Position numbers and translations under genes: made by a program. Below are positions 10,307 through 41,057 of a stretch of 64,000 bases of DNA, in pieces (the stretch's first letter is position 1; every line of letters starts with the position of its first letter). The DNA is from Escherichia coli (GTDB lineage Bacteria > Pseudomonadota > Gammaproteobacteria > Enterobacterales > Enterobacteriaceae). The notes beneath the pieces are model-generated. The model had not been told where the DNA came from. It saw nothing but the letters and a program-made list of their open reading frames with translations, and made no database searches. The stretch lies in assembly GCF_024502345.1 (NCBI RefSeq), contig NZ_JALDNN010000001.1; one strand, 5' to 3'.

Positions 10307-11710
10307 GTGTCACTTTCGCTTTGGCAGCAGTGTCTTGCCCGATTGCAGGATGAGTTACCAGCCACAGAATTCAGTATGTGGATACGCCCATTGCAGGCGG
10401 AACTGAGCGATAACACGCTGGCCCTGTACGCGCCAAACCGTTTTGTCCTCGATTGGGTACGGGACAAGTACCTTAATAATATCAATGGACTGCTAACCAG
10501 TTTCTGCGGAGCGGATGCCCCACAGCTGCGTTTTGAAGTCGGCACCAAACCGGTGACGCAAACGCCACAAGCGGCAGTGACGAGCAACGTCGCGGCCCCT
10601 GCACAGGTGGCGCAAACGCAGCCGCAACGTGCTGCGCCTTCTACGCGCTCAGGTTGGGATAACGTCCCGGCCCCGGCAGAACCGACCTATCGTTCTAACG
10701 TAAACGTCAAACACACGTTTGATAACTTCGTTGAAGGTAAATCTAACCAACTGGCGCGCGCGGCGGCTCGCCAGGTGGCGGATAACCCTGGCGGTGCCTA
10801 TAACCCGTTGTTCCTTTATGGCGGCACGGGTCTGGGTAAAACTCACCTGCTGCATGCGGTGGGTAACGGCATTATGGCGCGCAAGCCGAATGCCAAAGTG
10901 GTTTATATGCACTCCGAGCGCTTTGTTCAGGACATGGTTAAAGCCCTGCAAAACAACGCGATCGAAGAGTTTAAACGCTACTACCGTTCCGTAGATGCAC
11001 TGCTGATCGACGATATTCAGTTTTTTGCTAATAAAGAACGATCTCAGGAAGAGTTTTTCCATACCTTCAACGCCCTGCTGGAAGGTAATCAACAGATCAT
11101 TCTCACCTCGGATCGCTATCCGAAAGAGATCAACGGCGTTGAGGATCGTTTGAAATCCCGCTTCGGTTGGGGACTGACTGTGGCGATCGAACCGCCAGAG
11201 CTGGAAACCCGTGTGGCGATCCTGATGAAAAAGGCCGACGAAAACGACATTCGTTTGCCGGGCGAAGTGGCGTTCTTTATCGCCAAGCGTCTACGATCTA
11301 ACGTACGTGAGCTGGAAGGGGCGCTGAACCGCGTCATTGCCAATGCCAACTTTACCGGACGGGCGATCACCATCGACTTCGTGCGTGAGGCGCTGCGCGA
11401 CTTGCTGGCATTGCAGGAAAAACTGGTCACCATCGACAATATTCAGAAGACGGTGGCGGAGTACTACAAGATCAAAGTCGCGGATCTCCTTTCCAAGCGT
11501 CGATCCCGCTCGGTGGCGCGTCCGCGCCAGATGGCGATGGCGCTGGCGAAAGAGCTGACTAACCACAGTCTGCCGGAGATTGGCGATGCGTTTGGTGGTC
11601 GTGACCACACGACGGTGCTTCATGCCTGCCGTAAGATCGAGCAGTTGCGTGAAGAGAGCCACGATATCAAAGAAGATTTTTCAAATTTAATCAGAACATT
11701 GTCATCGTAA
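10307..11710 (+). CDS. dnaA: chromosomal replication initiator DnaA
   Basis: Translation matches DnaA (AAA+ Walker [11 protein letters not shown]); start set at the GTG giving MSLSLWQQ (467 aa), 12 nt inside the track start. Confidence 0.9.
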
Positions 11711-16352: not shown

Positions 16353-16450
16353 GCCTGATGCGCTACGCTTATCAGGCCTACGAAAATCTTGCAATGTATT
16401 GAATTTTCATGATTTTGTAGGCCGGATAAGGCGTTCACGCCGCATCCGGC
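16353..16450. repeat. REP/BIME element pair downstream of gyrB
   Basis: Two inverted REP-like units (gcctgatgcgctacgcttatcaggcctac and tgtaggccggataaggcgttcacgccgcatccggca). Confidence 0.6.
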
Positions 16451-25974: not shown

Positions 25975-26307
25975 TCAGTTATCAGACATTCTGGCCGGTG
26001 GAATAACCGCATTGGTGGCTTGCGCGTTGGCTTCGCTTTTTTCAACGCGTGAGCGCACCGAACTGTCTTTGCGGAACACATCCCACGGCAGTAAAAGCGT
26101 GTCCATCACAGCGGTAAACGGCATATCGAGAATCGCCAGCGACTTAGTGCCCCAGTTGGTTTCATCGTCGCCAATCATGGTTGCGCTGGCGCGGGTGCCG
26201 GGATACGTTCCTTCTTTCCCTCCGGTATGGGACATCACGCTGGAGCATCCTCCGAGTAATGTCATTCCGCTGCATATCATGAACGCTAACAACACATTTC
26301 TTATCAT
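25975..26307 (-). CDS. yidQ: putative lipoprotein YidQ
   Basis: Start at MIRNVLLAFMICSGMTLLGGCSS (lipobox), ATG at 26305-26307. Confidence 0.75.
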   Translation of the reverse strand: MIRNVLLAFMICSGMTLLGGCSSVMSHTGGKEGTYPGTRASATMIGDDETNWGTKSLAILDMPFTAVMDTLLLPWDVFRKDSSVRSRVEKSEANAQATNAVIPPARMSDN

Positions 26308-26481
26308 AATAAATTCATCTGTTGATCGTGGGTGTTGGCCTGATGAGTTATAGCGATCCCTTGCTGAAAATAACATCATCATTACGTCGCACTGTGGCGG
26401 CTATCGCACTTTAACGTTTCGTGCTGCCCCCTCAGTCTATGCAATAGACCATAAACTGCAAAAAAAAGTCCGCTGATAAGG

Positions 26482-26510
26482 CTTGAAAAGTTCATTTCCA
26501 GACCCATTTT
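26482..26510 (+). promoter_or_regulatory. sigma-32 heat-shock promoter of ibpAB
   Basis: cttgaaa -35 and cccatttt -10 elements with 14-bp spacing, about 100 bp upstream of ibpA. Confidence 0.5.
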
Positions 26511-26612
26511 TACATCGTAGCCGATGAGGACGCGCCTGATGGGTGTTCTGGCTACCTGACCTGTCCATTGTGGAAGGTCTTACATTCTCGCTGATTTCAG
26601 GAGCTATTGATT

Positions 26613-27026
26613 ATGCGTAACTTTGATTTATCCCCGCTTTACCGTTCTGCTATTGGATTTGACCGTTTGTTTAACCACTTAGAAAACAACCAGAGCCAGA
26701 GTAATGGCGGCTACCCTCCGTATAACGTTGAACTGGTAGACGAAAACCATTACCGCATTGCTATCGCTGTGGCTGGTTTTGCTGAGAGCGAACTGGAAAT
26801 TACCGCCCAGGATAATCTGCTGGTGGTGAAAGGTGCTCACGCCGACGAACAAAAAGAGCGCACCTATCTGTACCAGGGCATCGCTGAACGCAACTTTGAA
26901 CGCAAATTCCAGTTAGCTGAGAACATTCATGTTCGTGGCGCTAACCTGGTAAATGGTTTGCTGTATATCGATCTCGAACGCGTGATTCCGGAAGCGAAAA
27001 AACCGCGCCGTATCGAAATCAACTAA
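26613..27026 (+). CDS. ibpA: small heat-shock protein IbpA
   Basis: ATG at 26613 ([16 protein letters not shown]...), alpha-crystallin domain. Confidence 0.9.
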
Positions 27027-27137
27027 TTCCCTAAGGCCGCCTGGCGCGGCCTGACATCTCCATGCTCGCCGTCAGGGAGCATATGCGAATCTTCGGATTT
27101 GCAGGTACTTACTCGCTTCTTAGAAGGAGAAATGACT

Positions 27138-27566
27138 ATGCGTAACTTCGATTTATCCCCACTGATGCGTCAATGGATCGGTTTTGACAAACTGGCCAAC
27201 GCACTGCAAAACGCCGGTGAAAGCCAGAGCTTCCCGCCGTACAACATTGAGAAAAGCGACGATAACCACTACCGCATTACCCTTGCGCTGGCAGGTTTCC
27301 GTCAGGAAGATTTAGAGATTCAACTGGAAGGTACGCGCCTGAGCGTAAAAGGCACGCCGGAGCAGCCAAAAGAAGAGAAAAAATGGCTGCATCAAGGGCT
27401 TATGAATCAGCCATTTAGCCTGAGCTTTACGCTGGCTGAAAATATGGAAGTCTCTGGCGCAACCTTCGTAAACGGTTTACTGCATATTGATTTAATTCGT
27501 AATGAGCCTGAACCCATCGCAGCGCAGCGTATCGCTATCAGCGAACGTCCCGCGTTAAATAGCTAA
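27138..27566 (+). CDS. ibpB: small heat-shock protein IbpB
   Basis: ATG at 27138 ([16 protein letters not shown]...) with aggag RBS 9 nt upstream; paralog of ibpA. Confidence 0.9.
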
Positions 27567-27581
27567 CTAGCTATTCTCTTT

Positions 27582-27609
27582 GCCCCGCCATTCTGGTGGG
27601 GCTTTTTTT
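27582..27609 (+). terminator. intrinsic terminator after ibpB
   Basis: Hairpin gccccgccattctggtggggc followed by T7. Confidence 0.55.
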
Positions 27610-27761
27610 GTCTTACTTACTCAACAATGCGTTAAATTTCGCCTGTTTAAGATATTTCGGCACGTTCTTTCCCGTGATAATGTGCGCTATAAGGCAAATC
27701 TGCTTCACCGATTCAGCCATAATCCGTAGCAATTAAAATGTTATCTCAAGAGAAATGGACG

Positions 27762-40876: not shown

Positions 40877-40982
40877 ATTTTTGGACAAAACGCAAACTGT
40901 GATCGATACTCAACTATGTACTAAATACGTCAAAATTCGTGCCGAAATTGCGCGTTCTGCGCGGAACAGGTATACTTTCAGT

Positions 40983-41057
40983 GTTGACATAATACAGTGT
41001 GCTTTGCGGTTACCAGCCGCAGGCGGCTGACGAAACCTCGCTCCGGCGGGGTTTTTT
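40983..41057 (+). ncRNA. istR: antitoxin sRNA IstR-1
   Basis: 75-nt unit ending in a T-run terminator (41052-41057), preceded by a tatact -10 at 40971-40976; divergent from tisB. Confidence 0.65.

Follow-up and report, generated by a model that had tools for sequence, protein, structure and literature searches.

The closest described system is ROSE_2 (RF01832), the enterobacterial ibpA thermometer, whose Escherichia coli representative was described by Waldminghaus et al. (2009) and Gaubig et al. (2011), as cited in PMC6096418 and PMC3669281. The E. coli element is one of the two best-studied ROSE-like elements and confers an approximately 4-fold reporter induction between 25 and 42 °C (PMC3669281). 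In the ibpA 5′ UTR, three stem–loops are recognized, of which SL3 is thermo-responsive; the thermometer is partly open already at 37 °C, and the IbpA protein has been described as its "safety catch" (bioRxiv 10.1101/2020.04.20.050740; PMC10410725).

Related elements differ from the E. coli leader in architecture; for ROSE1 of rhizobia and the Pseudomonas ibpA elements, the difference is confined to the number and sequence of the upstream hairpins. The family ROSE (RF00435), whose founding element ROSE1 lies upstream of hspA in Bradyrhizobium japonicum and other alpha-proteobacteria, also precedes a small heat-shock gene and masks the Shine–Dalgarno sequence in the same way, by U(U/C)GCU with a bulged G in the hairpin closest to the start codon (PMC3669281). 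ROSE1 has four hairpins and a different sequence, whereas the E. coli leader has three and is preceded by a sigma-32 type promoter. The Pseudomonas ibpA elements (ROSE_3, RF02523) share the gene and the hairpin formed by the motif and the Shine–Dalgarno sequence, and their heat induction in E. coli reporters is similar (4- to 6-fold, PMC3669281), but they consist of two hairpins in 61 to 62 nt, as opposed to three in about 96 nt. FourU of Salmonella agsA is likewise found in the leader of a small heat-shock gene, where a labile hairpin hides the Shine–Dalgarno sequence (PMC6096418). However, its four uridines pair with the Shine–Dalgarno sequence without U(U/C)GCU or a bulged G, and the ibpA leader is not a member of this class.

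Here, we examined the leader of ibpA in a window of E. coli DNA (the whole stretch of 64,000 nucleotides that was analyzed), for which the initial annotation had proposed a ROSE-type thermometer. The Rfam match to ROSE_2, the pairing of the motif with the Shine–Dalgarno sequence, the comparative data, and the literature concur with this proposal, and the leader is almost certainly the ROSE-type RNA thermometer already described for the ibpAB heat-shock operon of E. coli. The features are listed in Table 1.

Table 1. Features of the ibpAB locus in the 64,000-nucleotide window
Feature	Position	Strand	Description
Sigma-32 −35 element, CTTGAAA	26482–26488	+	7/7 consensus
Sigma-32 −10 element, ACCCATTT	26502–26509	+	Consensus CCCCATNT; 13-nt spacer from −35
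Hairpin I (SL1)	26517–26555	+	Stable stem–loop at the predicted mRNA 5′ end
Rfam ROSE_2 (RF01832) match	26547–26619	+	Spans hairpins II and III and the start codon
Hairpin II (SL2)	26558–26579	+	GACCU-G-UCC/GGA-AGGUC with a bulged G; part of the Rfam ROSE_2 structure
Hairpin III (SL3), temperature-sensing	26587–26603	+	CUC-G-CUG, loop AUUU, CAGGAG
ROSE motif U(U/C)GCU, here UCGCU	26588–26592	+	G26590 bulged; anti-Shine–Dalgarno
Shine–Dalgarno AGGAG	26599–26603	+	Paired within hairpin III; 9-nt spacer to the ATG at 26613
ibpA CDS	26613–27026	+	137 aa; ATG at 26613; NCBIfam NF008013 IbpA and RefSeq annotation
ROSE-like hairpin, ibpA–ibpB spacer	27112–27129	+	CUC-G-CUUC, loop UUA, GAAGGAG; read from the sequence
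ibpB CDS	27138–27566	+	142 aa; second gene of the ibpAB operon; NCBIfam NF008618 IbpB equivalog, 288.4 bits
Terminator-like stem–loop, then T run	27582–27602	+	End of the ibpAB operon, before yidE

Locus and promoter

The region examined for genes (26300–27700) contains ibpA and ibpB as tandem small heat-shock genes on the plus strand, and the ibpA product scored 295.5 bits with the NCBIfam IbpA equivalog (cut-off, 212). A 741-nt query comprising the leader, ibpA, and the spacer was 100% identical to E. coli chromosomes; of 5426 complete genomes, 5419 contained it exactly once. The shorter promoter-plus-leader segment of 148 nt showed at least 99% identity in 5382 of 5417 genomes. The neighbors in an identical E. 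coli genome are yidR, yidQ (opposite strand), ibpA, ibpB, and yidE. The window is a piece of the E. coli chromosome.

Both strands of the 64-kb window were scanned for sigma-32 promoters using CTTGAAA, a spacer of 12 to 15 nt, and CCCCATNT, with a threshold of at least 12/14. The site upstream of ibpA (26482–26509) scored 13/14 and was the sole one to reach the threshold on either strand. No sigma-70 promoter was found in a scan of 26300–27750, which is expected because the promoter is of the sigma-32 type. Based on the usual spacing from the −10 element, we infer that transcription starts at about 26516–26518, which would give a leader of 95 to 97 nt; the E. coli ibpA leader is given as 96 nt in a review (PMC6096418). 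The initial annotation had placed a leader of roughly 100 nt, starting at 26511, downstream of a sigma-32 promoter. The promoter is borne out by the 13/14 match and the length is close, but the start lies approximately 5 nt too far upstream of the predicted one near 26517. The leader is shorter by this amount because 26511 is still at the edge of the −10 element.

Several other elements were observed in and around the operon. The terminator-like hairpin downstream of ibpB is GCCCCGCC-AUU-CUGGUGGGGC followed by UUUUUUU, and it is situated 16 nt 3′ of the ibpB stop codon. A G+C-rich stem–loop (GGCCGC-CUGGC-GCGGCC, 27035–27051) is located 9 nt past the ibpA stop codon with no T run after it. Its sole Rfam match was a CRISPR repeat model at 13.6 bits, which is meaningless, and it could be a processing or stabilizing structure that separates the ibpA from the ibpAB transcripts. 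Two minus-strand ORFs of 43 and 41 aa overlap the ibpA leader, and both are short and unsupported.

Rfam match and secondary structure of the leader

The whole window was scanned with Rfam at gathering thresholds, and the leader matched ROSE_2 over the full model (positions 1–73 of 73) with 100.4 bits, well above the gathering score of 65 (E = 9.7e-22). ROSE (RF00435) did not reach its threshold in the window, and ROSE_2 alone among the ROSE families passed. In identical E. coli genomes, RefSeq annotates a "ROSE" sequence_feature at the equivalent bases, directly upstream of ibpA and overlapping its start. The other Rfam matches above their gathering scores were the istR Hfq-binding antitoxin RNA (40928–41057, plus strand, 144.8 bits), the AsdA antisense RNA of dnaA mRNA (10817–10897, minus strand, 101.9 bits), and the ES036/CssrF sRNA (16374–16416, minus strand, 44.8 bits), all of which are expected in this region of the E. 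coli chromosome.

The initial annotation had pointed to a ggag Shine–Dalgarno sequence, whose pairing it could not confirm by eye, and had proposed a search for a U(U/C)GCU motif paired with it and an Rfam scan as checks. The ggag is found at 26600–26603, within AGGAG, and it is faced by UCGCU with G26590 bulged. The pairs are U26588–A26602, C26589–G26601, C26591–G26600, and U26592–A26599. Together with the ROSE_2 score, these observations support the assignment. The leader displays every ROSE-like feature that is testable by sequence analysis: it is the 5′ UTR of a small heat-shock (alpha-crystallin type) gene, ibpA; U(U/C)GCU pairs imperfectly with the Shine–Dalgarno sequence in the hairpin nearest to the start codon; G26590 within the motif is unpaired in the Rfam consensus and in the structures predicted by RNAfold and RNAalifold; and three hairpins are predicted (two to four in the class), of which the upstream ones are predicted to be stable. 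Position, number of hairpins, and the combination of UCGCU, bulged G, and AGGAG are the same as in ROSE_2, and the leader is this element, with no difference of substance. The two outer pairs that Rfam draws for hairpin III (26583–26584 with 26608–26609) are poorly supported, being paired in just 58% of cells across relatives in the alignment A2 described below.

The three hairpins differ in their predicted stability. Hairpin I begins exactly at the predicted first transcribed base (26517) and was present in the RNAfold minimum-energy structure at all temperatures between 20 and 50 °C. Over the same range, hairpin II also stayed folded, with a pair probability that fell from 0.99 to 0.96. The core of hairpin III is marginal, with a calculated ΔG that weakened from −5.7 kcal/mol at 25 °C through −4.1 kcal/mol at 37 °C to −3.4 kcal/mol at 42 °C. 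Deletion of G26590 in silico changed the ΔG at 37 °C from −4.1 to −7.9 kcal/mol, nearly doubling the stability of this hairpin.

Conservation and covariation across Proteobacteria

Loci for comparison were gathered with a degenerate DNA pattern for the N terminus of IbpA (11 residues) alone, taking one genome per species, which gave at least 120 loci. They include Enterobacterales, Aeromonas, Salinivibrio, Cellvibrio and relatives, Undibacterium, and alpha-proteobacteria (for example, Paracoccus and Pleomorphomonas). Addition of the leader of the window itself and removal of two loci with incomplete upstream sequence resulted in 119 full-length leaders.

T[TC]GCT was located 19 to 39 nt before the ATG in 117 of the 119 ibpA-type leaders; in shuffled leaders, the average count was 6.9 and the highest was 14. 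The flanks of the motif change together with those of the Shine–Dalgarno sequence from group to group. The motif and Shine–Dalgarno arms are CUCGCUG/CAGGAG in Enterobacteriaceae, CCUCGCUG/UAGGAGG in Serratia, UUAUCGCUC/GAGGGUAA in Aeromonas, AUAUUGCUC/GAGGAUAU in the Cellvibrio group, and UGUCGCUC/GGAGGACA in alpha-proteobacteria. Exceptional sequences were seen at three loci. In Cedecea neteri NBRC 105707 (L062, 3622–3703), CAUGAG replaces the CAGGAG that contains the Shine–Dalgarno sequence. A Sodalis-like louse endosymbiont (L078, 2096–2175) has UCGAU for UCGCU and a shifted UUGGAGG, and the motif is absent in a metagenome-assembled genome of Proteobacteria (L043, before an ATG at about 1768). 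These exceptions may reflect decay or sequencing error.

For the analysis of covariation, a covariance model (R1) was built from 68 distinct Enterobacterales leaders and the Rfam structure, and a search of 100 sources with it yielded the alignment A2. In a plain MAFFT alignment of the 68 leaders (A1), sequences with shorter loops had the 3′ arm of hairpin II in the wrong columns, and A1 was replaced by realignment with R1. In A2, which was fitted to the model so that its counts are biased toward the given structure, 93.5% of cells held standard pairs versus 73.0% in shuffles, and double-sided changes were observed in 14 of 16 pairs. The covariation score was 0.427 versus 0.129 in shuffles, none of 500 of which reached 0.427, and it was at most 0.07 when the partners were slid by one to three columns. 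All eight pairs of hairpin II had double changes, with 94 to 97% of cells paired. In hairpin III, double changes were found in four of six pairs, and the two pairs at the heart of the motif (C–G and U–A) never vary.

As a control, 43 Enterobacteriaceae leaders were aligned with plain MAFFT and passed to RNAalifold without a given structure. The same three hairpins were recovered, and five of the eight inner-stem pairs of hairpin I showed double changes. Hairpin III is invariant within these 43 leaders, and its six pairs consequently give no covariation. The covariation support for hairpin III is provided by its flanking pairs and by relatives at a greater distance. Together, these data show that the architecture of the leader is maintained by selection.

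Thirteen distant ibpA leaders (L005, L008, L010, L013, L019, L022, L024, L029, L040, L042, L053, L073, and L078) were scanned with the Rfam ROSE families at the gathering threshold, and none of them matched. They include genomes of Serratia, Pantoea, Acerihabitans, Aeromonas, Salinivibrio, Cellvibrio-type, and alpha-proteobacterial origin. In 12 of these 13 leaders, U(U/C)GCU is nevertheless present opposite the Shine–Dalgarno sequence; it is degraded in L078. Rfam is unfit for tracing the ROSE family beyond core Enterobacteriaceae. Because its ROSE models are narrow, automated annotation under-counts the class.

Temperature dependence of the predicted folding

The comparison of folding at 30 and 42 °C suggested in the initial annotation proved weakly supportive: the change with temperature is small, and its direction varies with where the sequence is cut. 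For the transcript 26517–26645, the unpaired probability of the Shine–Dalgarno sequence rose from 0.095 at 25 °C through 0.18 at 42 °C to 0.24 at 50 °C. When 26511–26630 was folded, the trend was reversed, and the unpaired probability dropped with temperature. In the minimum-energy structure of this 120-nt stretch at 30 to 37 °C, a competitor displaces hairpin III. The stretch is not unusually stable compared with shuffles (z = −1.6; an equal or better folding energy was reached by 17 of 200 shuffles).

When the 73-nt Rfam match was folded alone, 26549–26559 paired with the Shine–Dalgarno region at all temperatures. In this fold, the 3′ strand of hairpin I (GGCUACCUGA) has lost its partner, and its pairing with UCAGGAGCU (26597–26606) buries the Shine–Dalgarno sequence. 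The pairing arises because hairpin I is cut in the 73-nt fold, and the complementarity between GGCUACCUGA and UCAGGAGCU is absent in most other genera. It is probably a truncation artifact, and folding Rfam matches in isolation can mislead.

Among the sequences folded, the expected, modest rise in accessibility was obtained solely for the transcript that begins at the predicted +1. The calculated folding counts as weak evidence for the thermometer. A weak signal is expected because non-canonical pairs, on which ROSE hairpins rely (PMC3669281), are missing from the energy model.

A second ROSE-like hairpin in the ibpB leader

The spacer between ibpA and ibpB contains a second hairpin of this kind. 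UCGCU at 27113–27117, with G27115 bulged, faces the Shine–Dalgarno sequence AAGGAG (27124–27129) of ibpB, and model R1 gave a secondary match at 27076–27146 with 26.5 bits. The ibpB leader (27062–27144) scored 19.3 bits with ROSE, 15.2 bits with ROSE_2, and 18.5 bits with ROSE_3, under the gathering scores of 45, 65, and 43, respectively. The Rfam ROSE models thus miss the ibpB leader in the window, and the hairpin is also without annotation in RefSeq. Across 51 Enterobacterales loci, the core CUCGCUUC-NNN-GAAGGAG upstream of ibpB shows almost no variation. It has been reported that ibpB has its own RNA thermometer (bioRxiv 10.1101/2020.04.20.050740). The ibpB leader works like a ROSE element, but by the Rfam criterion it does not belong to these families.

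Proposed mechanism and alternative roles of the leader

The identity of the locus, its Rfam membership, the pairing of the motif with the Shine–Dalgarno sequence, and the conservation and covariation of the hairpins are established in this analysis, as are the sequestration of the Shine–Dalgarno sequence in hairpin III through the ROSE motif and the marginal stability of this hairpin beside stable upstream ones. The following mechanism is proposed for the ibpA leader. RNA polymerase carrying sigma-32 would initiate near 26517, and the leader of about 96 nt would form the stable hairpins I and II and the weak hairpin III. At low temperature, pairing of UCGCU, with G26590 bulged, to AGGAG would result in poor ribosome loading. 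As the temperature rises, the marginal hairpin III would fray gradually, the Shine–Dalgarno sequence would become accessible, and ibpA would be translated. As a second layer of control, IbpA oligomers bind the leader and repress translation until protein aggregates titrate IbpA away. The temperature response and the self-repression by IbpA rest on published experiments.

This second layer could in principle be the main one. The leader would then be chiefly a protein-binding operator for IbpA oligomers that is released by aggregates, with temperature sensing by the RNA being secondary; we regard this as a serious, though less probable, reading. In published experiments (bioRxiv 10.1101/2020.04.20.050740; PMC10410725; PMC10474464), translation of a reporter with the ibpA 5′ UTR increases in a strain without ibpAB, and also when aggregates build up at constant temperature, and mutations in SL1 to SL3 abolish control. 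In the hairpins themselves, the hairpin II sequence CCUGUCC/GGAAGG is nearly invariant across Enterobacterales, which goes beyond the need of a purely structural role. However, the operator adds to the thermometer and does not replace it: the same papers accept the thermometer and place IbpA as a "safety catch" on one that is leaky. Furthermore, the ROSE motif opposite the Shine–Dalgarno sequence is conserved far beyond the gamma-proteobacteria in which the self-regulation by IbpA is described.

The conservation of hairpin II can be specified further. Its core heptamer CCUGUCC is exact in 67 of 118 leaders, and the outer pairs and the loop vary (hairpin in loci L002–L121). In the Cellvibrio group, the core appears in compensated form (CUUGAUC/GAUAAG), and an upstream hairpin with this bulged-G layout is also seen in more distant proteobacteria. 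That hairpin II is a specific recognition site of IbpA oligomers, and not just a folding aid, is a speculative and rather unlikely interpretation of this pattern.

Protection of the message is a further conceivable role. If the hairpins mainly shielded the ibpAB mRNA from RNase, with no gating of translation, the placement of hairpin I at the very first predicted base of the transcript would make sense, and a role of upstream ROSE hairpins in protecting mRNA is discussed in PMC3669281. Nevertheless, such protection leaves unexplained why the motif faces the Shine–Dalgarno sequence in nearly all leaders (117/119) and why hairpin III is kept marginal by its bulged G. It accounts at most for hairpins I and II, and as the main function of the leader it is improbable. 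A chance resemblance in an ordinary, unstructured leader with a good Shine–Dalgarno sequence, with which the unexceptional overall folding energy of 26511–26630 would agree, is ruled out for practical purposes by the Rfam E value, by covariation far above the shuffled and slid controls, and by the near-universal motif. The protein operator and a possible mRNA-stabilizing role of hairpin I are complements of the thermometer, not alternatives to it.

Implications

The element is already known and is annotated in both Rfam and RefSeq, and nothing new is added here; the value of the case lies in calibration. A reader without tools identified the thermometer correctly, and the covariance model and the comparative analysis confirmed it, whereas temperature-dependent folding alone would not have done so. 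For E. coli, the leader represents textbook translational heat-shock control at the expected place on the chromosome. If hairpin II were indeed the IbpA site, the leader would sense both protein and temperature, each through a separable module.
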